Below, piece after piece: positions 23,688-49,618 of a DNA stretch of 64,000 bases. The DNA is from a phage. The stretch lies in the sequence record OZ336096.1. One strand, 5' to 3'. How positions within the stretch are numbered: the stretch's first letter is position 1; the number at the start of each line of letters is the position of its first letter. The notes under the pieces were generated by a model, which had not been told where the DNA came from, made no database searches, and saw only the letters and a list, made by a program, of their open reading frames with translations. The position numbers and the translations under genes are program-made.

Positions 23688-24003
23688 TAACAGGCTCTAT
23701 AGCTCATCTAAAACGTGCCTAAACAGGGAAACTCTACAGATGTAGACAATCCTGTGCTAAATGATGTACGATGTAAGAAACTATACAACATAGGAGTCTT
23801 ACATGCCAAATAACTTCGAATATGAGTTTGAATACATCTAAATGCCGAACGACTAACCGTGATGAATGTAGCGGTGTAGGGTCAAGCGACTCGAAATGGT
23901 ACGCTACTTAGAAATAAGTAGAAGATATAGTCTGGACTTACTGGCGACAGTAAGCAGCTTGAATAAAGCGGGGTAAGCTTAGCGAACTTACCTGAACAAC
24001 AAG
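23688..24003 (+). other. group I intron (ORF-less) interrupting nrdD
   Basis: 316 nt between exons; exon 1 ends in T, intron ends in G; contains GACAATCCTGTGCTAAAT, GGGTCAAGCGACTCGAAATGG, AGATATAGTCTGG, GGGGTAAG..CCTGAACAACAAG, which closely resemble core elements of the T4 td/nrdD introns as I remember them. Confidence 0.75.
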
Positions 24004-24951
24004 TGTAGAGCGTTTTTATCACCATACCATAACGAATATGGTGAAGAGTTTTATGTAGGTCGTGCTAATATTGGTGCTGTATCTTTGAACTTACCAATGA
24101 TTTACCAGTATTCTAAAGAGAATGGTTTAGATTTCTGGAAAGAGCTTGATAAGTACCTAGAGATGATTCGCAGCTTCCACAAGAAACGCTACGAAATGAT
24201 TGCTAATATGCCAGCAAGTTCTAACCCTCTTGCATTTACACAAGGTGGTCTGTACAAAGGGACTAAGAAACCTACTGATAAGGTTGGCTGGGATATTGTG
24301 AAGTCCTTCACAGCTTCTTTTGGGGTTACTGCACTAGACGAGCTATCTGTTCTTGCTGAAGGTAAGCGACTTCATGAAGTTGGAAGCTGTAGTTTTGCAT
24401 ATGATGTTCTGGAATATATCAACATAAAGACTGAAGAGTTTAAAAATGAAGATGGTTTCTTATATGCAGTCTATGGCACTCCAGCAGAATCACTTTGTGG
24501 AACTCAGCTAAAACAGTTCAGAGATATGTTTGGCGTTATCAAAGGTGTTTCTGATAAAGAATACTTTACAAATAGTTTCCATATGAATGTTGCAGCAGAC
24601 ATTACACCATTTGAGAAGCAGGACTTAGAAGAACCTTTCTTCCATATCTGTAGAGGTGGCAGAATCCAGTATGTAAGGGTAGCTAACCCAGAAAACTTAC
24701 CAGCACTTAAAAGTTGTATTACAAGAGGGATGTTGAAAGGTTTCTATCAGGGACTTAACTTTGACTTAGCAATCTGTGAACATTGTGGTAACAGACCAAA
24801 GGCTGATGTTGAAGAATGTGAGGTTTGCCATTCACACGATATCTCTGTGATTAACAGGGTGTGTGGGTACTTGTCATTCACAAAAATTAAAGGTCAGTCT
24901 CGAATGAATGACGCTAAGATGGCAGAAATTAAGGATAGGGTTTCTATGTAA
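24004..24951 (+). CDS. nrdD: anaerobic ribonucleoside-triphosphate reductase, exon 2
   Basis: Frame open from 23998; CRAFLSPY..FYVGRANIGAVSLNLP; C-terminal Zn site CEHCGN..CEVCHSHD and glycyl-radical motif RVCGYL. Confidence 0.8.
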   Translation, partial: CRAFLSPYHNEYGEEFYVGRANIGAVSLNLPMIYQYSKENGLDFWKELDKYLEMIRSFHKKRYEMIANMPASSNPLAFTQGGLYKGTKKPTDKVGWDIVKSFTASFGVTALDELSVLAEGKRLHEVGSCSFAYDVLEYINIKTEEFKNEDGFLYAVYGTPAESLCGTQLKQFRDMFGVIKGVSDKEYFTNSFHMNVAADITPFEKQDLEEPFFHICRGGRIQYVRVANPENLPALKSCITRGMLKGFYQGLNFDLAICEHCGNRPKADVEECEVCHSHDISVINRVCGYLSFTKIKGQSRMNDAKMAEIKDRVSM

Positions 24952-25013
24952 AACTTGACAAGGTGATGTGGGTCTTGATAGGCTTGCATCACCTTTTTAT
25001 TTGGAGTTACACT

Positions 25014-25349
25014 ATGGACTTGTGGCTTTATGTAGCAGTTTGTGGGATTGCATGTCTGATAATCTTATTTATTCTTGGAGTAATGCGATTTAGAGACATC
25101 ATACAGTCAGATTTTTTGCCTGAGTTTGCCATGATAGTTGGGGTTATTATACTTTGTGTCTTGGCGGTGTTCTATTCGTACAAAACTGTGATATGGATGG
25201 ATGCAAACAATTGTGTAAAAACTCATCAACATCGTGAGGTTACTTATTTTGTAAGTGTACTTAGTGGGAACACCACTATACTTGTCCCACAAACTTCTGT
25301 AGAGTATCTTTACACATGTGATAATGGTAAAACTATATGGTGGAATTAA
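25014..25349 (+). CDS. small membrane protein (hypothetical)
   Basis: ORF trimmed to ATG 25014; hydrophobic segments. Confidence 0.4.
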   Translation: MDLWLYVAVCGIACLIILFILGVMRFRDIIQSDFLPEFAMIVGVIILCVLAVFYSYKTVIWMDANNCVKTHQHREVTYFVSVLSGNTTILVPQTSVEYLYTCDNGKTIWWN

Positions 25350-25552
25350 CAATGACAACACTCTTGAAAGCATTGACACCCATACTACATATAGCAGTCT
25401 TCTTCTTTGGGGTTAGTGTTATGGTATGGGGTTTTTCAGACCCACAATGGAGTTTCTCATATCATGGTCAGATGGATTTATGGTCATGTTTCAAACCATT
25501 TTTAGGGTTAGCTATAGCATTCAGTGCATTACCAACTAAGGTGAAATTATGA
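25337..25552 (+). CDS. small membrane protein (hypothetical)
   Basis: 71 aa hydrophobic ORF. Confidence 0.4.
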   Translation: MVELTMTTLLKALTPILHIAVFFFGVSVMVWGFSDPQWSFSYHGQMDLWSCFKPFLGLAIAFSALPTKVKL

Positions 25553-25944
25553 TTAAGTTGAACCAAAAACAGTTAGAGTGGATTAAAGATTATGCCTCAG
25601 AGTGTGGCTCTTGCGAAAAGAGTCACGTAAGATACTCAACATTCCACACGGTATTCACACTGTATGTCAGCGACAACGTTCTAAGTGATTCTGTAGAAGA
25701 TGGTGTAGCATTGCCTAATGAATTGCTTGACAAATTAGCTGTAGTTACTGGAACGTGGAGTGAAGAAGATGGTCACGAGCTATCTGACGATGTTGTCTTC
25801 TACAGTCTTGAAAACATTATGAATCCAGAGTACATTATGCTAATGACTTGTGCACAAGATTTTGTACCATTACAAAACTTCATTAAAGAGCACTGTGAAG
25901 AGTTTATTACTAAACAGGTTCCTTGTCAGGTGGTGTTTGAATGA
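25549..25944 (+). CDS. hypothetical protein
   Basis: 131 aa ORF, overlapping start/stop with neighbours. Confidence 0.45.
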   Translation: MIKLNQKQLEWIKDYASECGSCEKSHVRYSTFHTVFTLYVSDNVLSDSVEDGVALPNELLDKLAVVTGTWSEEDGHELSDDVVFYSLENIMNPEYIMLMTCAQDFVPLQNFIKEHCEEFITKQVPCQVVFE

Positions 25945-26240
25945 GTAAAACAATTCGAAGAAAAGGTTTAAAGAACGTTCATGGACTCTATGAGTGGAGA
26001 AATAAGGTACGTAACAGAGAAAATGCTTCAGAGGTCTACTACCACTCTGATATGATGTCCAGAAAAGGTGGCTCTTACGACTTCACAAGTCAGCCTTGTA
26101 GAGAGATTAAGAAGGCTACTAAACGTCTTACAAGAACACAAATCAGGCAGCTTCCTAAGACATCCTTCTTAGATGAAGACTTTGACATTGATAGCAAGTC
26201 TCCAAAGAAAGCTGCTAAGAACACTTATATGTATTGGTGA
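25941..26240 (+). CDS. hypothetical basic protein
   Basis: 99 aa ORF. Confidence 0.4.
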   Translation: MSKTIRRKGLKNVHGLYEWRNKVRNRENASEVYYHSDMMSRKGGSYDFTSQPCREIKKATKRLTRTQIRQLPKTSFLDEDFDIDSKSPKKAAKNTYMYW

Positions 26241-27673: not shown

Positions 27674-28189
27674 ATGTATCTGTCAAACCTAAAACGTTCT
27701 GCTGCAATGTCAGTGCTAAGACTCAGCTTTGAGGAACGTCAAGAGTTCATTGACTCCCACCAATACGACCCCTCAAACTCCAATCACATGATTCTCTGGA
27801 ATCGTGAAAGTACTCGTGAAAGAGCACTATTCCGTTATTACCCACACTACACTATAGATAACCTGTATGAATGTTTTGTTGTGAAGAACACCATTACAGT
27901 ACTCAATAAACTTTGCAGATACACAGGTAGTCAATCCTTCACATTAGGCCACCACAAACCTGTTACAAAGGGTGGTGAGCATCACTGTGCAAACTGGTTT
28001 ATCCAGACTAAACTTGATAACCAGAAGCAGGGAGATAACCTTCTAAGCACACCTAAGATGACCTACGAAGAACAAGAGAAATATATCAAAAATAATATGC
28101 CAGATGTGCTTGACAACAACTATACAGATTTGGCAATATCTCTCCTGTTGAAGTTCGAGACAGTTTATAGGGCAACTTACAATGGCTAA
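27674..28189 (+). CDS. HNH endonuclease
   Basis: 171 aa; LGHHKPVTKGGEHHCANWFIQTKLDNQKQGDN resembles an HNH/His-Me finger. Confidence 0.6.
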   Translation: MYLSNLKRSAAMSVLRLSFEERQEFIDSHQYDPSNSNHMILWNRESTRERALFRYYPHYTIDNLYECFVVKNTITVLNKLCRYTGSQSFTLGHHKPVTKGGEHHCANWFIQTKLDNQKQGDNLLSTPKMTYEEQEKYIKNNMPDVLDNNYTDLAISLLLKFETVYRATYNG

Positions 28190-28460
28190 AGAAAAGTGGG
28201 AGATTTTACCATTAGTCAGTGAAGGTGGTAATGGTTGTGAGATGTACATGATACGTGGTCATGTTCCAGAACCAATTGCACTTGAGATGGTAAACAACTT
28301 TACAGATGGTTCTTACAAAGACTTAGGAGAGCCAACTATAAAGCATCAATGGGTAAAACCTGTACCAGACAGCACAGGTAACTGTAGTGTACTTTACCAC
28401 GTTGTAGACCCTGTAAAATGCAAATCTGCAATGGCAGTAACAAACGTAACTTTTGATTGA
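28182..28460 (+). CDS. hypothetical protein
   Basis: 92 aa ORF. Confidence 0.4.
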   Translation: MAKEKWEILPLVSEGGNGCEMYMIRGHVPEPIALEMVNNFTDGSYKDLGEPTIKHQWVKPVPDSTGNCSVLYHVVDPVKCKSAMAVTNVTFD

Positions 28461-28469
28461 GAGAAAATT

Positions 28470-28925
28470 ATGATTTTTTGCAGCTTCCAAAAAAGAATTA
28501 TTGAGATTCTATACAATAAGTTTGGGACAGATAACACATTTGACTCAAATGAAGCTATTGAAGCCCTACAAGAAGGAAGTGATTACATCAAAAAACAGCC
28601 AATAGCAAACATCAGGTACTACTTGACTCAGATGAGAAAGTGGGGTGTGCTCATCGTGGTAGGACAGATTAAGCAACAAGGGAGGATGCTCATCAACCAA
28701 TTAAATAGAGGTTTTATTGAGAAGCACATTCAGCTAGACTATTTACTTAAAGAGCCACGAAACCAACGTGAAGAGCAGCAAAAAGACTTAAGTGGTGGTG
28801 TAGGTGTGTCTCCAGACATAAAATTCTTTATTGGTGAGTTGATGTTTGATACACTCCAAGATGCTGTTGAACACTGCAAAAAGTATGTTATCAAAGTAAA
28901 ACGTGCAAAAATTATTTGGGAGTAA
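28470..28925 (+). CDS. paralog family protein, member 1 (type A)
   Basis: 151 aa; shares C-terminal motif FFIGELMF..AVEHCKKYVIKVKRAKIIWE with three downstream genes. Confidence 0.55.
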   Translation: MIFCSFQKRIIEILYNKFGTDNTFDSNEAIEALQEGSDYIKKQPIANIRYYLTQMRKWGVLIVVGQIKQQGRMLINQLNRGFIEKHIQLDYLLKEPRNQREEQQKDLSGGVGVSPDIKFFIGELMFDTLQDAVEHCKKYVIKVKRAKIIWE

Positions 28926-28929
28926 TAAC

Positions 28930-29325
28930 ATGTTTGAGCTTCTGAAGGTTCTGTATATAAATTTTGGCTATGATAAAACATTTTCTGGCTCACAACTAAC
29001 TAAGGTTTTTAATAAGTATCTACCACATGCTTCAATCAGGGATAAAGCTAATTGGTCTCACAGATTACGTAAAAGTGGGTATATTAGCGTTGTTGGAGCG
29101 ACAGGCTTTAATAATGAGTATCTTATGAGAATCAATGAAGGCAAAGCTAAAAATGTGCTTTTAAATTGTAATGACCATCAACAAAAGGATGAAGAGGTTA
29201 GTGTAGGTGAAGTAGGGTACTTTATAGGTGACATGCACTTTACCAGTATGGAGGCAGCAGTTGAGCATTGTAAGAGAACGGTTATCCAAACAAAAAGAAA
29301 GCGTATTGTTTGGGAAGAAGTTTAA
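28930..29325 (+). CDS. paralog family protein, member 2 (type B)
   Basis: Start set at ATG 28930 (MFELLKVLY); C-terminal AVEHCKRTVIQTKRKRIVWE. Confidence 0.5.
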   Translation: MFELLKVLYINFGYDKTFSGSQLTKVFNKYLPHASIRDKANWSHRLRKSGYISVVGATGFNNEYLMRINEGKAKNVLLNCNDHQQKDEEVSVGEVGYFIGDMHFTSMEAAVEHCKRTVIQTKRKRIVWEEV

Positions 29326-29346
29326 ACATTTGATTAGGAATACACT

Positions 29347-29811
29347 ATGATTTTTTGCAATTTACAGAAGCACGTAATAGAGATTTTATACAAAACCTTC
29401 GGGACAGAAAACACTTTTGACTCTAACGAAGCAATTGACGCATTAAGAGAGAATAGCCTTTTTATACGAGGCCAGTCAATCAGTAATACCCGTGGGTATC
29501 TAACAATGTTAAGACAGTCTGGTGTACTGCTGACTGTAGGGCAGGTAAAAAGCAAAGGTAGACTAAGTATTAATCAATTAAATCGAGCCTTTATGGAGAA
29601 GCACATACAACTGTCAAGGATGCTAGATAATACGCGTGAAGAGTTGGGGAGTTCACAAAAAGCAAGTTCATCTGATGTTAAAGAGGTGGATGTACAACCT
29701 GACGTAAGATACTTTATTGCTGATGTTATGTTTAAAACACTCGATGAAGCTATTGAGCACTGCAAAAAGCATCTTATTAAAGTTAAATATGCAAAAGTTA
29801 TTTGGGAGTGA
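29347..29811 (+). CDS. paralog family protein, member 3 (type A)
   Basis: 154 aa; near-collinear with member 1 (MIFCNLQKHVIEILYKTFG... vs MIFCSFQKRIIEILYNKFG...). Confidence 0.55.
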   Translation: MIFCNLQKHVIEILYKTFGTENTFDSNEAIDALRENSLFIRGQSISNTRGYLTMLRQSGVLLTVGQVKSKGRLSINQLNRAFMEKHIQLSRMLDNTREELGSSQKASSSDVKEVDVQPDVRYFIADVMFKTLDEAIEHCKKHLIKVKYAKVIWE

Positions 29812-29815
29812 TGCT

Positions 29816-30196
29816 ATGATTGAACTGTTAAAAGTCCTGTATAATGAGTTTGGTTATGATAAAACTTTTACTTGTTCACAGATACGTAGTATCCATGATA
29901 AGGAATTTCCAAATGTATCCAAGACAAACAAGTCAACTCGGTTCAATCGTCTTCGCCAGAGGGGTTACATTAAAATAGTTGGATACAAGAATAACTCTTT
30001 CGAGTATGTAATGCAGATTAACAGAGAAGTATCAAGTAAAATACTTGAAGAGCCAACAGCCGAAGAACAAAAGATACAAGACGGTGAAGTTCGCTTCTTT
30101 GTGGAGAAGGAAAGTTTTGGGTCAATAGATGAAGCTGTCGAATATTGTAAAAAGAACATTATTCAGATAAAGCGTAGAAAGGTTATTTGGGAATAA
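29816..30196 (+). CDS. paralog family protein, member 4 (type B)
   Basis: Start set at ATG 29816 (MIELLKVLY); collinear with member 2. Confidence 0.5.
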   Translation: MIELLKVLYNEFGYDKTFTCSQIRSIHDKEFPNVSKTNKSTRFNRLRQRGYIKIVGYKNNSFEYVMQINREVSSKILEEPTAEEQKIQDGEVRFFVEKESFGSIDEAVEYCKKNIIQIKRRKVIWE

Positions 30197-30211
30197 AGAG
30201 AGAGAGAAGCT

Positions 30212-31093
30212 ATGAAAACATCTATCCGTGTTACAGTTCATTCACCGACTAAAGGGACTCACGAAGAAGAGTTTAACATTATCCAATTCCCTTCTGGTGA
30301 GATTGGTGGACACTTTTCACAAGAGCTTGTTGATTTCACTGCTTATGCAGCATCATCCATCAACAATGTGATTATGATTGTAAAGGGTTACGATAAGGAT
30401 ACCTTGTTTGCCCTAGCACTTGCTAAAGAGGTGGTGGATGACTTAGTACCTCATAAGTTTGCTATGAAGACTGTTATCTTTTACTATTTGCCAAATGCAC
30501 GTTACGACCGTCACATGTTTAAAGGTGATGCAGCAGCTTTGAAAGTGTTTGCACAACAGGTTAATGCAATGGGTTTTGATGCAGTCTGTGCAGTTGACCC
30601 TCACAGCTATGTACCAGATAACCTGTTTAACTGCTTCCAGAGTATTCCTCAAAAGGAAATTGCAGTTCACTATGCAAATGACCCTCTGATTGATTACTTA
30701 GTAGCCCCAGATGCAGGTGCTGCTAAGAAGATTGCAGAGACTGCTAAAGAGGTGGATAAACCATATATCACAATGTCTAAAGTACGCAACCTTAAGACTG
30801 GTGAAATTACTGGTATGCGAATCCTTGATGATGTTGATTTGACAGATAAAACCGTCATGATTCTGGATGATATCTGTGATGGTGGTCGAACCTTCATAGA
30901 AGCAGCGAAACATCTTCGTGAAGCAGGTGCAAAACGTGTGGAACTATATGTAACACATGGTATCTTCTCTAAAGATGTTGAAAACCTTCTTGACAACGGT
31001 ATCGACCATATTTACACTACAAACTCTTTAGGCGAAGCTAAAGACCGTGGCTTAACACATTATAGCCAAGTTACTGTAGCAAACCTTGATTGA
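30212..31093 (+). CDS. ribose-phosphate pyrophosphokinase-like protein (Prs-like; candidate ADP-ribose pyrophosphokinase)
   Basis: 293 aa; phosphoribosyltransferase-type PRPP-binding loop VMILDDICDGGRTF; Prs-like layout. Confidence 0.7.
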   Translation: MKTSIRVTVHSPTKGTHEEEFNIIQFPSGEIGGHFSQELVDFTAYAASSINNVIMIVKGYDKDTLFALALAKEVVDDLVPHKFAMKTVIFYYLPNARYDRHMFKGDAAALKVFAQQVNAMGFDAVCAVDPHSYVPDNLFNCFQSIPQKEIAVHYANDPLIDYLVAPDAGAAKKIAETAKEVDKPYITMSKVRNLKTGEITGMRILDDVDLTDKTVMILDDICDGGRTFIEAAKHLREAGAKRVELYVTHGIFSKDVENLLDNGIDHIYTTNSLGEAKDRGLTHYSQVTVANLD

Positions 31094-31138: not shown

Positions 31139-32419
31139 ATGACTAAATCACTTTATGCAGTACCAGCAGGTTTAAACGCAGATGCTTACAAGTCATCGCA
31201 TATATATCAGTATCCAGATGCTACACAGTATCTTATGCTGAACCTGACGCCACGTAGTGACAAATGGTTTAACAGCCCCTTAGCAATTGATGGTGTAGTA
31301 GCTTTTGGTATTCAACGTTTCGTTAAAGATTACTTGATAGACCACTGGAACGCCACTTTCTTTGAACGTGATAAAAAAGAAGCAATTGACGAAATCTTAG
31401 AAGTCATGAACGGTGTTCTGGGCAAAGATGCTATTGGTCGAGAGCATTGGGAAGCACTTCACGACTTAGGTTATCTGCCAGTCGAAGTATACGCTGTAGA
31501 AGAAGGCACAGTTGTTCCAATGCGTGTCCCAATGATTGTCTTCCAGAACACTGTTTCAGGCTTCCATTGGGTAGCAGGTTATCTGGAAGACGCTTTCTCT
31601 GCTGAGATTTGGAAGGCTTGTACCATTGCAACTATTGCATTGCACTACAAACGTATCTGTAAGAAGTGGGCTGACCTTACTTGTGACAACGACTTGCATT
31701 TACCTTATCAGTGCCATGACTTTGCTATGCGTGGTATGTCCGGCTTTACTGATGACGCATTTAACGCTGTAGGCCACTTAACCAGCTTTAAAGGAACTGA
31801 TAGCTTCCCTGCTGTATATACAGCTAAACGCATCTACGGGCAGTCTTACCCAATCTCTGATATTGGTGGTTCTGTACCAGCCACTGAACACTCTGTAATG
31901 TGTGCAAACATTGCTTGGGAAGGTGGTAATGAATTGATTGAAGAAGAAAGACGCTTCAAAGGTGAGTTGCAAACCTTCCGTCGCTTCTTAACAGAGACTT
32001 ACCCAACTGGTATTGCAAGTGTTGTTTCAGACACTTATAACTTCTGGAGAACTGTGTCAGAAATCTTACCAGCACTCCGTAAAGAGATTATGGAACGTGA
32101 TGGCAAACTGGTAATTCGTCCTGACTCTGGAGACCCTGTACATATTGTCACAGGTTATAAAGCAATCCACTTAGAGTGTGCTAAAAAGGCTTATTACGAG
32201 CACCTAAGCAAGCTAGAGGCAGGTGATACAATGCTGAGCACCGTCCTGAACATGAAGCTTGAAGATATTAACTATGTTATGGCTGGGTGGTTACGTGCAG
32301 AAGGCTATGAAATGGTGGTTGACAGAGAAGACTTTGAAGTAGCCGATACAGTGTTGCTGAAAGCTTCATGTTCAGGACGGTGCTCAGCATTGTATCACCT
32401 GTCGAAGTATACGCTGTAG
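31139..32419 (+). CDS. nicotinamide phosphoribosyltransferase-like protein, 5' part (disrupted by internal duplication)
   Basis: 426 aa ORF; NAMPT-like; terminates inside the duplication junction after ..TVLLKASCSGRCSALYHLSKYTL. Confidence 0.65.
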   Translation: MTKSLYAVPAGLNADAYKSSHIYQYPDATQYLMLNLTPRSDKWFNSPLAIDGVVAFGIQRFVKDYLIDHWNATFFERDKKEAIDEILEVMNGVLGKDAIGREHWEALHDLGYLPVEVYAVEEGTVVPMRVPMIVFQNTVSGFHWVAGYLEDAFSAEIWKACTIATIALHYKRICKKWADLTCDNDLHLPYQCHDFAMRGMSGFTDDAFNAVGHLTSFKGTDSFPAVYTAKRIYGQSYPISDIGGSVPATEHSVMCANIAWEGGNELIEEERRFKGELQTFRRFLTETYPTGIASVVSDTYNFWRTVSEILPALRKEIMERDGKLVIRPDSGDPVHIVTGYKAIHLECAKKAYYEHLSKLEAGDTMLSTVLNMKLEDINYVMAGWLRAEGYEMVVDREDFEVADTVLLKASCSGRCSALYHLSKYTL

Positions 32420-33283
32420 AAGAAGGCACAGTTGTTCCAATGCGTGTCCCAATGATTGTCTTCCAGAACACTGTTTCAGGCTTCCATTGGGTAGCAGGTT
32501 ATCTGGAAGACGCTTTCTCTGCTGAGATTTGGAAGGCTTGTACCATTGCAACTATTGCATTGCACTACAAACGTATCTGTAAGAAGTGGGCTGACCTTAC
32601 TTGTGACAACGACTTGCATTTACCTTATCAGTGCCATGACTTTGCTATGCGTGGTATGTCCGGCTTTACTGATGACGCATTTAACGCTGTAGGCCACTTA
32701 ACCAGCTTTAAAGGAACTGATAGCTTCCCTGCTGTATATACAGCTAAACGCATCTACGGGCAGTCTTACCCAATCTCTGATATTGGTGGTTCTGTACCAG
32801 CCACTGAACACTCTGTAATGTGTGCAAACATTGCTTGGGAAGGTGGTAATGAATTGATTGAAGAAGAAAGACGCTTCAAAGGTGAGTTGCAAACCTTCCG
32901 TCGCTTCTTAACAGAGACTTACCCAACTGGTATTGCAAGTGTTGTTTCAGACACTTATAACTTCTGGAGAACTGTGTCAGAAATCTTACCAGCACTCCGT
33001 AAAGAGATTATGGAACGTGATGGCAAACTGGTAATTCGTCCTGACTCTGGAGACCCTGTACATATTGTCACAGGTTATAAAGCAATCCACTTAGAGTGTG
33101 CTAAAAAGGCTTATTACGAGCACCTAAGCAAGCTAGAGGCAGGTGATACAATGCTGAGCACCGTCCTGAACATGAAGCTTGAAGATATTAACTATGTTAT
33201 GGCTGGGTGGTTACGTGCAGAAGGCTATGAAATGGTGGTTGACAGAGAAGACTTTGAAGTAGCCGATACAGTGTTGCTGAAAG
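31481..33283. repeat. perfect tandem direct duplication (2 x 883 bp) inside the NAMPT-like gene, joined by a 37 nt inverted segment
   Basis: 31481-32363 equals 32401-33283; junction 32364-32400 is the exact reverse complement of 32221-32257. Confidence 0.9.
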
Positions 33284-33840
33284 ATGCTTACATCAACGGC
33301 TCTGCAAACGTTGTAACACGTCCTGTAGCGGAGATTGATGGAGCTATCAAGACACTGTATAACATCTTTGGGGGAACTATTAACTCTAAAGGGTTTAAGG
33401 TACTGGATGAGCACATCGGCCTTATCTATGGTGACTCTATCACACTGGAACGTGCAAACGAAATCCTGAAGCGTCTGTATGAAATGGGTTTTGCAAGCTC
33501 TAACGTGGTGTTTGGTGTAGGTTCTTACACTTACCAGTACATGACTCGTGACACCTTTGCATTTGCTGTCAAAGCAACTCTTGCAAGCATTGGTGGTAAA
33601 GAGATTATGCTTGCAAAAGACCCTAAAACAGATAGTGGTGTTAAAAAATCTGCCTTTGGTGGTGTAGCACCTATGTGGGATGGTGATAAGCTGAAAGCTG
33701 TAGATGGCTATGGATTCCAGAGTTTTGCGGATGTACTTGACCACCCAGCTTGTGCTTTACGTTTAGTCTTTAGTGACTCTGAGCAGTTCGGTTACACAAC
33801 TCTTGGTGATATTCGAAATAATATTGACAAGCAGCTTTAA
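32368..33840 (+). CDS. nicotinamide phosphoribosyltransferase-like protein, 3' part
   Basis: 490 aa ORF starting in the junction; contains second repeat copy plus unique C-terminus. Confidence 0.65.
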   Translation: MFRTVLSIVSPVEVYAVEEGTVVPMRVPMIVFQNTVSGFHWVAGYLEDAFSAEIWKACTIATIALHYKRICKKWADLTCDNDLHLPYQCHDFAMRGMSGFTDDAFNAVGHLTSFKGTDSFPAVYTAKRIYGQSYPISDIGGSVPATEHSVMCANIAWEGGNELIEEERRFKGELQTFRRFLTETYPTGIASVVSDTYNFWRTVSEILPALRKEIMERDGKLVIRPDSGDPVHIVTGYKAIHLECAKKAYYEHLSKLEAGDTMLSTVLNMKLEDINYVMAGWLRAEGYEMVVDREDFEVADTVLLKDAYINGSANVVTRPVAEIDGAIKTLYNIFGGTINSKGFKVLDEHIGLIYGDSITLERANEILKRLYEMGFASSNVVFGVGSYTYQYMTRDTFAFAVKATLASIGGKEIMLAKDPKTDSGVKKSAFGGVAPMWDGDKLKAVDGYGFQSFADVLDHPACALRLVFSDSEQFGYTTLGDIRNNIDKQL

Positions 33841-33854
33841 AAGTATATGATAAG

Positions 33855-33878
33855 AGGCTCCTACGGGAGCCTTTTTAA
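33855..33878 (+). terminator. intrinsic terminator
   Basis: GGCTCCTACGGGAGCC hairpin followed by TTTTT. Confidence 0.55.
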
Positions 33879-46924: not shown

Positions 46925-47094
46925 TTGATAATGTTGTTCGAGGGGGTTTATCTAAAAGGGATTAACTTAAAAGATTCTTTATAGATAAGCTCAAAAAAAT
47001 TGCTTGCAATCCGCTATCAAAACAAGTAAATTACTAATCAACGGGAGGTAATGACCTCCCCACTAAGTAAAATCCTTAAACTAGGAGACTCAAA

Positions 47095-47625
47095 GTGAAC
47101 AAGTTCAAAGCTATCAATTACATTCGTTCAAATGCTGTAATGTCAAAGCCTGTCAAAGATACCTACGAATTTCGCTGTAATGGTGTACACTTTGCAACCA
47201 TCACCAAATCAGGAAACGGGGCTTATTACGTTCATCGTCGTAATGTCGCAACCGTTGTAGTCTCTCATTTTATGCAAGCTGTCGCAGAATTATTACCGTT
47301 ATTCTTAGAGATTTACTTAGATGAGTGTAAAAACGTTCGCAATCACGTTAAAAACCTTTTAAATAGTTATAAAATGGCTTATGAACGTTCTATTAAGTCA
47401 TTGAACAAGTTTTATAAAGCCCCTGTAAATACTGTTTCAATGGCCTATGCTGCAAATGGTGAGGTGGTGAGTCTCTTTGAAGTGGAAGAAATCAAGCTGC
47501 ATGATTTACGCACTAGCGGTTACTCTAAGACTCTCGGTGAAGGTTTAACGTTCAATATCAAGAACTTAGAAAAAACTTTAAAAGATATTGAAAAAGATAT
47601 TGACGAGACAATCAAAAATCTGTAA
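47095..47625 (+). CDS. hypothetical protein (cassette gene)
   Basis: 176 aa ORF with GTG start after conserved leader (..CTAGGAGACTCAAAGTG). Confidence 0.45.
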   Translation: MNKFKAINYIRSNAVMSKPVKDTYEFRCNGVHFATITKSGNGAYYVHRRNVATVVVSHFMQAVAELLPLFLEIYLDECKNVRNHVKNLLNSYKMAYERSIKSLNKFYKAPVNTVSMAYAANGEVVSLFEVEEIKLHDLRTSGYSKTLGEGLTFNIKNLEKTLKDIEKDIDETIKNL

Positions 47626-47705
47626 ATTGTCAATCAACGGGGAGGGAATGACCTTCCCCACTAAATAAAGTCCTTAAACTACTTCCTAAACTGGAGAATC
47701 TAAAA
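47626..47705 (+). promoter_or_regulatory. cassette unit type 2
   Basis: Copy of CTGTAAATTGTCAATCAACGGGGAGGGAATGACCTTCCCC leader. Confidence 0.55.
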
Positions 47706-47954
47706 ATGGCAACTATCCGCGCTACTGTTAACGAGTTCGGTTTTTCCTCTCTGGATGTTAAATTTGACATTGCAGGCACTGATAACGCCTTTGAAATGGT
47801 GAAAGGTCTTATCAGTCAGACCATCAAAGATTATAATCCTTCGGATGAGTTCTGGGAGGAAACAAAACAAGAAGTTCTCAAGGATGGTTATACTTATCAC
47901 TATTGGGGAGAAAAAATCGTCTCCCTGTACTACAACAAACAAGGTTATAACTAA
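47706..47954 (+). CDS. hypothetical protein (last cassette gene)
   Basis: 82 aa ORF; terminator follows. Confidence 0.5.
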   Translation: MATIRATVNEFGFSSLDVKFDIAGTDNAFEMVKGLISQTIKDYNPSDEFWEETKQEVLKDGYTYHYWGEKIVSLYYNKQGYN

Positions 47955-47988
47955 TCGACGCAGCGGGGCTAAATAGCCCCAGATACCT

Positions 47989-48015
47989 GAACAGCCCCTC
48001 ATAGGGGCTTTTTTA
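47989..48015 (+). terminator. intrinsic terminator
   Basis: AGCCCCTCATAGGGGCT hairpin followed by TTTTTT. Confidence 0.55.
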
Positions 48016-49618
48016 CGTCTATCCAATCCTTATACAATCCCTTTCCCTCACCTTTCCAGAATCTTCCCACTGATTCAATAGAATCTATCTCATACCTTAA
48101 AAAGTAATAACTCTATAGCTTACTCTATAGCCCCTTATCAAATCAACTTAAATATAAGCCCATAACCCGAAAGGGAAGGGCAACCATTTAAACGCTCTAT
48201 AAAGCCCTATAACAACCTTATCAATCTAACTTAAGGGATTGCATTAACCCACCCTTAAAAGCCCTTTATAAAGCTTTCTAGAGCCTTAAAAGAACCTTAT
48301 AAGGTTATAAGCTTTATTATCTCGTTAGCTATCTTGTGAACTACTAAAAAGGGCTTGTTAGTGTTTTAAAAGTATGTTATAGGGGCTATAAAGTTACTTC
48401 AAAGTTGCTTAAAAGGGGCTTAAAAGTTACGTAAATGCTAGCCACCTTAACATTTTCTTAACAATTTCTTAACAAACCCTACATAGTTATGCTTTTAAGG
48501 CACTTGTTAGCAACTTGTTAGCCCCTTGTTAAATCTCTGTTAAGACCATGTAAAAGCCTTGTAAGAGTCTTTGACATAGCCTTTAAAGCTCCTGCAAAGC
48601 CCTATAAAGAGCTATCCATACAATTGATGGGTAAATACTAGGGGGAGACTGAAAAGAGCCTATAAAGAGCTTTTAAGAGCTTTTAAAAGTATGTTTAAGG
48701 AATCACTAAGAAAGGAAAGGGAACGATAAGAAAGAGATAGTGACCATGTTAATAGCTTGTTAAAAAGATTAAACACTTGTTAGGAACTTGTTAATTATCT
48801 TAACAAAATAACTCTTAAAAATTAACTTGTTAGCTCTTGTTAGTCATCTGTTAAGACTCTGTAAAGACCATGTAGCAACTGTTAAGAAACTGTTAAGCCC
48901 TTGTTAGTTTTGTTAAGAATCTGTTAAGACCTCTGAAGAGATGTTAAGAGAATGTAATAGCTGTTAAGAGATTGTTAATGATATTTTAAAATTCTGCAAA
49001 GGGGATGTTACAGGGATGTTAAGGGCTACCAAGCAGATATACACCTTTTACAGATATTTTTCAGTTCCTTCAAAGACCCTAAAAAATGACTTGACAACTC
49101 TATTTTATAAAAATTTTAAAATTCTGAATAATTACCTATACAGTCTTTTAAAAATACAGGCATAAACAGGCTTATAAGATACCTTGTTAGTACCGTGTTA
49201 GACCTTGTGAGATAAGGTCTGTAAAGATATTCCTGTTAAGTTTATTAAAACAGTCTATATAGAGGCTTAGTAATACCTAGTGAACATCTATAGAGAGTCA
49301 CATAGCTGACATAGAGATTAAGAGGTGTATAGGAGCTTCTAAGAGGGTATAGAGAGATGGTTAAGGTGATTGTATAGGTTGTTAAGAAGGCTTGTTAGAA
49401 GACTAGTTAGAAGGGTTATACAGAGGGGCTATTAAGACCACTAGATAGTTACTAAGATACTATATAGTACTATATAACTATATAGAGAGTAAGATTAAGA
49501 AGGTTGTTAAGAAGGGTAGATATTTTGTTCACATATGATGGTGACCCAGAGGTTGGGACAACCAATAAAATTTTATAAAAATTAAAAAGCCCCCAATTAA
49601 GGAGGCTCTTAAGATATT
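48016..49618. repeat. 1.6 kb ORF-free region dense in short degenerate repeats (TATAAAG, [C/T]TGTTA[A/G]G, TATAGAG families)
   Basis: No ORF >= 60 aa in any frame; dozens of copies of TTGTTAG / CTGTTAAG / ATGTTAAG, TATAAAG-type motifs upstream and TATAGAG / CTATATAG motifs downstream. Confidence 0.8.

Follow-up and report, generated by a model that had tools for sequence, protein, structure and literature searches.

An exact 883-nt duplication with a short inverted joint divides the Namat gene of a Felixounavirus genome: recent template switching or artefact?

Introduction

What is to be made of a phage gene that carries, inside its own coding sequence, a perfect tandem copy of 883 nt of itself, joined to the original by a short piece of the same sequence in inverted orientation? 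Such a structure lies in the window analysed here, a 64,000-nt stretch of phage DNA (sequence record OZ336096.1), and we ask which gene is interrupted, what the interruption would do to that gene, and whether the rearrangement arose in the phage or on the way from DNA to database. An initial annotation had posed the last of these questions as a choice between an assembly or chimeric-read artefact and a very recent template switch, and this has proved to be the right pair of alternatives to weigh: the architecture fits a double template switch, and the two copies are undiverged.

Results

Geometry of the duplication

Comparison of the window with itself confirms the exact 883-bp repeat reported at the outset (883/883 nt identical, 0 mismatches; Table 1), and the repeat cannot be extended by even 1 base at either end. 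The 37-nt junction between the copies, CTTCATGTTCAGGACGGTGCTCAGCATTGTATCACCT, was likewise said to be the exact reverse complement of a segment within the repeat, and direct comparison bears this out; the chance expectation of a 37-nt exact inverted match is about 1e-13 in 64 kb. A separate window-wide repeat scan finds the same event as a direct repeat with 920-nt spacing, together with an inverted repeat of 41 nt, also perfect, in which 32361-32401 matches 32220-32260 and, in copy 2, 33140-33180. The inverted match thus runs on into both flanks of the junction, taking in AAG (3 nt) to its left and G (1 nt) to its right. Across the 64 kb of that scan the duplication is the sole long perfect repeat, the other matches being three short and hairpin-like. 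The insert as a whole, an 883-nt copy plus the 37-nt inverted piece, is 920 nt long, which is not a multiple of 3.

The template of the junction sits 104-143 nt upstream of the first breakpoint, and every piece is drawn from within the same 883 nt, on which ground random ligation of three fragments was rejected. At the first switch point there is a 3-nt microhomology, and 5 of the first 7 positions pair; at the second the overlap is 1 nt, which is chance level, and a search for longer concealed homology at both switch points found none. Cloning at a restriction site was also considered and rejected: the junction makes AAGCTT, a HindIII site, but the native breakpoint reads AAGATG and has no HindIII site.

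Table 1. Positions of the duplicated block, its joint, the two reading frames and the neighbouring features in the window
Feature	Position	Strand	Remarks
Predicted Adps, Prs-like ADP-ribose pyrophosphokinase	30212-31093	+	NARP1 first gene, intact; Pfam PF14572/PF00156; phrog_619
ORF1, 426 aa	31139-32419	+	Namat residues 1-408 plus 18 junction-encoded residues (ASCSGRCSALYHLSKYTL), then stop; Pfam NAMPT_N and partial NAPRTase
Copy 1 of 883-nt block	31481-32363	+	Namat codon 115 position 1 to codon 409 position 1
Template of inverted junction	32221-32257	+	Namat codons ~362-374; second instance at 33141-33177 in copy 2
3-nt microhomology AAG, first switch	32361-32363	+	Pairs with CTT at 32258-32260
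37-nt inverted templated insertion between copies	32364-32400	-	Holds the fortuitous ATG (32368) of ORF2
ORF2, 490 aa	32368-33840	+	11 junction-encoded residues plus Namat residues 115-593; Pfam NAPRTase only
Copy 2 of 883-nt block	32401-33283	+	First base G is the 1-nt microhomology of the second switch
Terminator-like stem-loop, end of Adps-Namat operon	33852-33875	+	

Identity of the interrupted gene

NARP1, an NAD+ reconstitution pathway that comprises Adps and Namat, counters NAD+-depleting defence, and its second enzyme, Namat, a nicotinamide ADP-ribose transferase, converts ADPR-PP and nicotinamide directly to NAD+ (Osterman et al., bioRxiv 10.1101/2024.02.11.579819; Lan et al., NAR 2026, PMC12774641). 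Namat is a head-to-tail dimer in which the nicotinamide pocket borrows D13' and Y15' from the partner protomer (residues of SpbetaL1) and in which domain A is built from N- and C-terminal segments together; it carries the motif GSX-Phi1-X-Phi2-X-Phi3-TRD, with aromatic X, which is absent in NAMPT (PMC12774641).

When one copy and the junction are removed in silico, the locus here collapses to a 1782-nt ORF of 593 aa that aligns without gaps with the Namat of Sl26 (572/593 aa, 94.8% nt). The reconstructed protein contains PF18127 (NAMPT_N) and PF04095 (NAPRTase), and its best PDB chains are 9w5w/9w5x (E=4e-128), which we take to be the crystallised SpbetaL1 Namat, with human NAMPT at about 1e-41. 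The catalytic residues D15, Y17, F195, R198, D221, H251, and R327 all align, and the selectivity-helix motif is present at residues 488-498 as GSYTYQYMTRD, in which Phi3 is Met, not Asn or Val. Lying 45 nt upstream on the same strand is an intact Prs-like gene whose product matches Prs structures with up to E=3e-18 and which agrees with Bas63 gene 79 in both its Pfam domains and its place in the gene order; we assign it to Adps, as a Prs-family (PF14572) protein encoded in a phage operon with Namat. Because Adps adjoins the disrupted gene, and because the adenine-clamp motif that NAMPT lacks is present, we assign the disrupted gene to Namat, the second NARP1 enzyme. The label first given to it, NAMPT-like, does not hold in the sense of a true NAMPT: the gene is on this evidence the Namat of NARP1, paired with an intact Adps.

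Predicted consequences for the protein

As the initial annotation had it, the gene is split into two overlapping ORFs, neither of them complete. Only ORF1 carries the beta1-beta2 selectivity loop and the residues D15 and Y17, which correspond to SpbetaL1 D13'/Y15', the pair with which the partner protomer stacks against nicotinamide. Only ORF2 carries the GSYTYQYMTRD helix, the GD motif at 458-459, and the portion of domain A that the C-terminus contributes, and it would start at a fortuitous ATG that no good Shine-Dalgarno sequence precedes. An intact Namat polypeptide, in which the N-terminal D/Y pair and the catalytic core are combined with both clamp elements, has no counterpart here and exists only after the in silico collapse. 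Because essential active-site and selectivity-clamp elements are divided between ORF1 and ORF2, loss of function is predicted. Two further expectations need revision: the single-copy gene is 593 aa long, not about 490 aa, and it does not appear to be "being remodelled", since the 920-nt insert disrupts the reading frame and essential Namat elements are missing from each ORF.

Relatives and database searches

By its sequence the window is assigned to Felixounavirus (Felix-O1-like), about 95% identical to its nearest relatives. The 883-nt block is single-copy in 231/231 related phage records, which contain 231 block places in all, and a duplication common to the relatives is thereby rejected; the suggestion that related genomes would hold a single-copy gene of about 490 aa was thus right as to copy number and wrong as to length. 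Among the relatives listed, the region spans 3282 bp, against 4201 bp here. We were unable to find the junction among 50,697 phage records searched; the left and right breakpoint sequences had 0 matches in IMG/VR, the left breakpoint had 0 matches in JGI metagenomes and GTDB genomes, and exact look-ups of the ORF1, ORF2, and Adps products returned no match. The event is private to this sequence, and it is judged young from the absence of divergence between the copies and from the single block in all 231 relatives. An ancient, or a functional in-frame, domain duplication was rejected, there being 0 mismatches and an insert of 920 nt that is not a multiple of 3.

Over 16.7 kb compared with Sl26 the window shows four gap events and is free of homopolymer noise, and with indels so rare a noisy long-read assembly was rejected as the source of the structure. 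Directly upstream of the Namat duplication lies an older, diverged tandem duplication with an 877-nt period, so that duplications of this size do get fixed in the lineage. JLBYU32 and LF82P2 have an extra ~350 bp, which is a small gene downstream of Namat and not within it. A homing-endonuclease or intron site in Namat was considered as a trigger and found no support, this extra DNA lying downstream of the gene.

Discussion

A possible route to the duplication

We infer that the architecture was left by a polymerase that switched template twice, both times locally, and because both templated pieces originate inside the same 883 nt, the event was probably an intramolecular one. A + strand 3' end at 32363 would have snapped back about 100 nt onto the + strand, AAG pairing with CTT at 32258-32260; the polymerase would then have copied 37 nt backwards, to 32221, before it re-primed on the normal template at 31481, another 740 nt upstream, and continued synthesis from there. 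The product of such steps would have the order direct-inverted-direct, as in a tandem inversion duplication or a FoSTeS/MMBIR templated insertion. We lean slightly toward phage replication or break repair as the venue, very recent and followed by a plaque bottleneck, although this is the weakest step of the scheme. The resulting knock-out would be tolerable, NARP1 being dispensable on hosts without NAD+-depleting defences.

Real event or artefact

That the duplication is a real, recent, and revertible Namat knock-out, made by a double template switch in the phage, has in our estimate a probability of about one half. Several observations argue for it. Under random three-fragment ligation the local origin of the pieces would be expected with a probability of about 1e-4 in an ~87-kb genome (an estimate); a snap-back model for direct-inverted-direct structures has been published (PMC4689423); the older 877-nt duplication next door shows that repeats of such a length can persist in the lineage; and the gene struck is non-essential, since Bas63 with genes 79-80 deleted is viable and forms ~20-fold fewer plaques on SIR2-HerA cells. 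A real insertion must strike a dispensable gene, which an artefact need not and would do at random only some of the time. The window is otherwise clean, with few gaps relative to Sl26 and no second anomaly in 64 kb, which disfavours a generally poor or chimera-ridden assembly. Finally, in a standard short-read assembly the path through the junction (37 nt plus two k-mers) would need overlapping reads from many fragments, so that the junction molecules would predate fragmentation. Against a real event stand the occurrence of the junction in one record only, with no second; the zero divergence between copies, which an artefact predicts equally well; the expectation that perfect 883-bp tandem repeats should collapse fast in a recombination-proficient phage; and the fact that a selective reason for the disruption is not known.

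The main competitor, to which we would give somewhat less than an even chance, is that the phage really has a single-copy 593-aa Namat and that the duplication comes from sequencing or assembly. It could have arisen by either of two routes: a) an in vitro double template-switch chimera made by a strand-displacing polymerase (e.g. in plaque MDA) and abundant enough to form a small R-J-R loop in the assembly graph, traversed once by the assembler; or b) an overlap-type contig of a circularly permuted or concatemeric genome, ending in an 883-nt overlap plus a 37-nt single-read chimeric tail, and rotated or re-originated untrimmed, so that the terminal overlap became an internal tandem duplication. 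Identical copies, a private structure, and the wrecking of a gene conserved in 231 relatives are all as an artefact would have them. MDA chimeras are intramolecular and in >85% of cases inverted; their priming relies on complementarity of 2-21 nt, and they combine two or more neighbouring parts, as a rule separated by hundreds of nt (PMC1855051; PMC4595205), a geometry that the distances here, ~100 and 740 nt, fit; and MDA-based phage pipelines that cover Felixounavirus isolates exist, one of which (plaque MDA, nanopore reads chopped to 300 nt, SPAdes) had 50-60% chimeric reads. Untrimmed assembler overlaps do reach public records, as in REP5, and the chance-level 1-nt overlap at the second joint is what plain concatenation would leave. 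However, individual in vitro chimeras are rare and are normally stripped by consensus or graph cleaning, so that route (a) requires an early amplification jackpot or extreme coverage, and route (b) presupposes both an assembler that does not remove overlaps of 883 nt and a rotation that went unchecked. A 3-nt microhomology is also short for unassisted annealing in vitro, the MDA overlap distribution peaking at ~6 nt. On the sequence alone, the switches may belong to the phage, to in vitro synthesis, or to assembly.

Two other readings carry far less weight. That the duplication is both real and functional or selected, the fragments 1-408 and 115-593 complementing one another as a head-to-tail heterodimer or duplication and collapse acting as a reversible OFF/ON switch of NARP1 that some hosts favour, we regard as very unlikely. 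ORF1 does keep the D13'/Y15' equivalents, the remainder of the barrel lies in ORF2 along with the selectivity helix, and PHROGs has separate families of N- and C-terminal NAMPT-like fragments, so that split genes recur in phage records; but the insert is out of frame, ORF2 has its fortuitous start without a good ribosome-binding site, correct folding is doubtful because part of domain A is missing from each fragment, and the structure has been seen once, without conservation. Perfect tandem repeats revert through homologous recombination, and a bolder form of the proposal would make the snap-back duplication a precisely revertible OFF switch, kept where Namat or NARP1 is costly or sensed on some hosts, or the fragments an active split Namat; this is a long shot. 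That the repeat is the terminal repeat of the genome, or a concatemer junction of a direct-terminal-repeat phage, is scarcely credible: Felixounavirus genomes are reported to be linear with direct terminal repeats, but the block lies mid-gene and is single-copy and uninterrupted in 231 relatives whatever the orientation of the record, the 37-nt inverted piece is left unexplained, and packaging ends inside coding sequence, private to one isolate, are implausible.

Significance

If the double template switch in the phage is real, Adps would still make ADPR-PP, with no intact Namat to convert it to NAD+, and the phage should therefore resemble Bas63 minus genes 79-80 on hosts with SIR2-HerA, Thoeris, DSR, or SEFIR. 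The knock-out would be revertible, because recombination between the two perfect copies would restore Namat precisely. We would then have a natural, freshly made, recombination-revertible loss-of-function allele of a known counter-defence pathway, NARP1, and the work of a textbook double template switch; a useful example of the decay or toggling, in culture, of anti-defence genes that can be dispensed with; and one of the rare cases in which errors of snap-back replication are recorded in the sequence of a lytic phage. Should it be an artefact, the record would mis-annotate Namat as two truncated genes, and the phage would be wrongly scored as NARP1-defective in surveys of defence and anti-defence. 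Either way, knowledge of NARP1 and of rearrangement mechanisms is unchanged.

Comparison with known systems

The locus agrees with the NARP1 of Bas63 (JohannRWettstein; genes 79-80) and of SpbetaL1 in the order of its two genes and in their Pfam domains (PF14572; PF18127 and PF04095), but here the Namat ORF is broken by the 920-nt insert and the pathway is predicted to halt at ADPR-PP. The reconstructed Namat differs from that of SpbetaL1 by an extra ~85-aa insert (residues ~343-427); with the Namat of Felixounavirus Sl26 its alignment is gapless. From NAMPT (human, Xanthomonas, and the phage NadV of NARP2), to which fold and catalytic core are homologous, it would differ in its predicted substrate, ADPR-PP.

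Among artificial structures, MDA chimeras (Lasken & Stockwell 2007, PMC1855051; Tu et al. 2015, PMC4595205) are inverted, intramolecular, and built of nearby parts, as here; they are, however, rare single-molecule products found in reads, whereas ours is a consensus sequence, and although the first switch (3 nt) and the geometry fit, the second joint of 1 nt falls under the usual 2-21 nt. The untrimmed end overlap of REP5 (OQ174504.1) is an exact duplicate made by assembly, but it is of k-mer size, 77 nt at both ends of the record, and has no inverted filler, whereas the repeat here is 883 nt long and internal, with a 37-nt inverted joint. The REP5 record ends, consisting only of that assembler overlap, are uninformative on true termini.

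Among biological structures, the nearest are the tandem inversion duplication (the snap-back of Kugelberg et al. 2010, as presented in PMC4689423), in which a 3' end folds onto nearby sequence, copies it, and returns to the original template, and the FoSTeS/MMBIR templated insertion; both have the direct-inverted-direct order and the short microhomology seen here. The locus differs from them in that i) the inverted copy here is 37 nt only, and the second switch lies 740 nt upstream of its end, so that the locus resembles a simple tandem duplication whose filler is short and inverted; ii) inverted-repeat pairing at the switches is minimal (3 nt and 1 nt); and iii) the target is a lytic phage gene, with no selection for amplification.

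Genomic context of the disrupted gene

From sequence matches, the window can be assigned to Felixounavirus (Felix O1-like myoviruses); three large pieces match hundreds of Escherichia, Salmonella, and Shigella phage records, and the nearest records (REP5-7, Sl26, and BPS17L1) are at most about 95% identical to it. Felixounavirus sequence about 94-95% identical to the window also occurs in Staphylococcus phage SA1 (GU169904.1) and Campylobacter phages A132 and A126, which are probably contamination or chimeric records.

Features of the window
Feature	Position	Strand	Families
Four tandem paralogous ORFs (about 131-159 aa), A-B-A'-B' pattern	28470-30196		PHROG 29478 (unknown function)
Adps, Prs-like gene upstream of Namat	30212-31093		PF14572/PF00156, phrog_619
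Disrupted gene, NAMPT-like	31139-33840		PF18127 + PF04095
Terminator-like hairpin 3' of Namat	33852-33875		
24 tRNA genes, 19 amino acids	58606-63556	+ (all)	

The initial annotation spoke of a NAMPT-like gene; the domains are indeed NAMPT-like, but the selectivity-helix motif and the pairing with Adps mark it as Namat, not a true NAMPT. Specifically, we base this identification on i) the neighboring Adps, as in phage Bas63; ii) the best PDB matches of the reconstructed protein, chains 9w5w/9w5x (E=4e-128, as against ~1e-41 for human NAMPT), which we take to be the crystallised SpbetaL1 Namat; and iii) the sequence GSYTYQYMTRD at residues 488-498, which is the Namat-specific selectivity-helix motif GSX-Phi-X-Phi-X-Phi-TRD (motif as defined in PMC12774641). 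The NAD+ reconstitution pathway NARP1 was defined in Bas63 genes 79-80, where Adps pyrophosphorylates ADP-ribose to ADPR-PP and Namat joins ADPR-PP to nicotinamide to yield NAD+, countering SIR2-HerA, Thoeris, DSR1/2, and SEFIR (Osterman et al., bioRxiv 10.1101/2024.02.11.579819); the Pfam annotations of that pair are identical to those of ours. PHROGs, matched with the two ORFs of the disrupted gene (31139-32419 and 32368-33840), lists a full-length NAMPT-like family (phrog_448) and separate families of N-terminal (phrog_16547, 315 positions) and C-terminal fragments (phrog_15800, 322 positions), so split or truncated NAMPT/Namat genes recur in phage records.

Directly upstream of Adps, the four tandem ORFs have a period of 877 nt, about 74% nucleotide identity between units, and a shared conserved ending (...EAVEHCKK.VI..KR.K.IWE); this 1.7-kb cassette is missing in Sl26, just 11 of ~260 Felixounavirus records have it (90-98% identity), and we read it as an old, diverged tandem duplication beside the perfect one. 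Elsewhere, intergenic modules recur in families of 5-7 copies (70-100% identity) across 42820-48430. In each, a promoter-like stretch (AAAGTACTTTACA...) is combined with a GC-rich stem-loop (GGGGCTTAA...TTAAGCCCC) and an RBS (CTAGGAGATTCAAAAATG), followed by small ORFs; the modules resemble a reiterated cassette for early-gene expression. No tRNA-Arg or tRNA-Trp was found in the tRNA cluster. Alignment to Sl26 breaks into fragments around the anaerobic ribonucleotide reductase genes (window 23810-26220, Sl26 27814-30708), where the Sl26 annotation includes HNH and homing endonucleases, suggesting that the two phages differ there in the presence of mobile endonuclease genes.

The duplication and its junction

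Direct comparison bears out the perfect repeat reported initially (31481-32363 and 32401-33283, 883/883 nt identical), as well as the 37-nt junction at 32364-32400, an exact reverse complement of 32221-32257, and the two overlapping ORFs, 31139-32419 (ORF1, 426 aa) and 32368-33840 (ORF2, 490 aa). The repeat ends are exact, not one further base matching on either side. A repeat finder independently returned the direct repeat with 920-nt spacing, and it paired 32361-32401 as a perfect 41-nt inverted repeat with 32220-32260 and, in copy 2, with 33140-33180; this pairing reaches 3 nt (AAG) into the flank on the left side of the junction and 1 nt (G) into the flank on its right. The finder located no comparable repeat elsewhere in the 64-kb window, three short hairpin-like matches excepted.

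Related phages carry a single copy, as the initial annotation expected: a search with the 883-nt block alone matched 231 records in 231 places, one in each. The gene, though, encodes 593 aa rather than the anticipated 490 or so. Among the matches listed for a 4.2-kb query, relatives span 3282 bp, 919-920 bp less than the window. Removing one copy and the junction restores a 1782-nt ORF of 593 aa, which aligns without gaps to the 1782-nt Namat CDS of Sl26 (572/593 residues, 94.8% nt). Felixounavirus Namat has an insert of ~85 aa (residues ~343-427; window ~32165-32363 and 33284-33341), absent from SpbetaL1 Namat and NAMPT. The 32363|32364 joint lies inside it, at codon 409, as does the source of the inverted piece (codons ~362-374). 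Most amino acid differences from Sl26 are concentrated in this insert.

Consequences for the protein

The reading frame is lost because the insertion is 920 nt long. ORF1 encodes residues 1-408, then 18 junction-encoded residues and a stop; ORF2 encodes residues 115-593 from a fortuitous ATG within the inverted piece, without a convincing Shine-Dalgarno sequence. When residues are transferred to the published Namat structure through alignment of the reconstructed protein, only ORF1 retains D15/Y17 (SpbetaL1 D13'/Y15', the partner-protomer residues sandwiching nicotinamide) and the beta1-beta2 selectivity loop; ORF2 alone has the selectivity helix and the GD motif (458-459), together with the C-terminal strands and helices of domain A; and the core residues F195, R198, D221, H251, and R327 fall in the duplicated part. 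Since catalytic centre and clamp are both reported to be essential, neither ORF should be active alone. Adps itself is undamaged, and we predict that the phage behaves like Bas63 lacking genes 79-80, which is viable and forms plaques about 20-fold less well on SIR2-HerA cells (10.1101/2024.02.11.579819).

Real event or artefact

We give a real, recent in vivo event a probability of about 0.5. The insertion hits a gene whose dispensability has been demonstrated in Bas63, as any viable insertion must; the rest of the sequence is clean relative to Sl26 (4 gap events in 16.7 kb, no homopolymer noise, no second anomaly); assembling the junction from ordinary short reads would take many overlapping fragments, implying molecules that predate library fragmentation; and the older 877-nt-period duplication directly upstream indicates that duplications of this size do occur and reach fixation in this lineage. 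A sequencing or assembly artefact is nonetheless a serious contender, to which we would grant a little under an even chance: it would give precisely this combination of perfect identity and uniqueness; a gene conserved in 231 relatives is destroyed; MDA plaque sequencing (50-60% chimeric reads, chopped to 300 nt, SPAdes) has already been used on Felixounavirus isolates; and untrimmed assembler overlaps do enter public records, as in Escherichia phage REP5 (OQ174504.1), whose first and last 77 nt, within a tail-fibre gene, are identical, an assembler k-mer overlap left in place, with no biological terminal repeat behind it. Exactly this structure would result from untrimmed rotation of a contig that ended in an 883-nt overlap and carried 37 nt of chimeric tail, the 1-nt overlap at the second joint then being at chance level. 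Exact look-up returned no record of the ORF1, ORF2, or Adps products, and matches were zero for both breakpoint sequences in IMG/VR and for the left breakpoint in JGI metagenomes and GTDB genomes.

Minor readings share the remainder. An ancient or functional in-frame domain duplication is excluded by 0 mismatches and a length (920 nt) not divisible by 3; a lineage feature, by the single-copy block in all 231 related records; a terminal repeat or concatemer junction, by the block's location within a conserved gene and by the inverted filler, which such a junction leaves unexplained; and a HindIII cloning joint, by the palindromic source site from which the junction AAGCTT comes (natively, the breakpoint reads AAGATG). 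Nor is there support for a homing-endonuclease site in Namat, the extra JLBYU32 DNA being a separate gene downstream. We regard it as very improbable that selection maintains the structure as a reversible OFF switch, or that the two fragments complement each other as a split enzyme. NARP1, Namat, and template-switch duplications have all been described before. The most that the structure can add is a new private allele, a natural and revertible knock-out of a counter-defence gene; at worst it is a mis-assembly that would cause two truncated 'NAMPT' annotations.

A proposed template-switch path and its parallels

Read 5' to 3', the sequence is normal as far as 32363, where it turns into the complement of 32257-32221 before starting again at 31481; a single 883-nt stretch supplies all three pieces. 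Random fragment ligation in a ~87-kb genome would, we estimate, yield such local origins about once in 10^4, which argues for an intramolecular, polymerase-driven event. On the simplest path, the + strand 3' end at 32363 would have folded back, AAG pairing with CTT at 32258-32260 across a 100-nt loop, been extended by 37 nt, and then rejoined the normal template at a point 740 nt further upstream, where the overlap is only 1 nt; a search for longer hidden homology at either switch point found none. The direct-inverted-direct order is common to snap-back tandem inversion duplications and to FoSTeS/MMBIR templated insertions (PMC4689423), although the inverted middle is unusually short here. The geometry fits equally well that of chimeras formed by strand displacement in vitro, of which >85% are inverted and intramolecular, primed on 2-21 nt, and which join two or more nearby parts over distances of hundreds of nucleotides (PMC1855051, PMC4595205).
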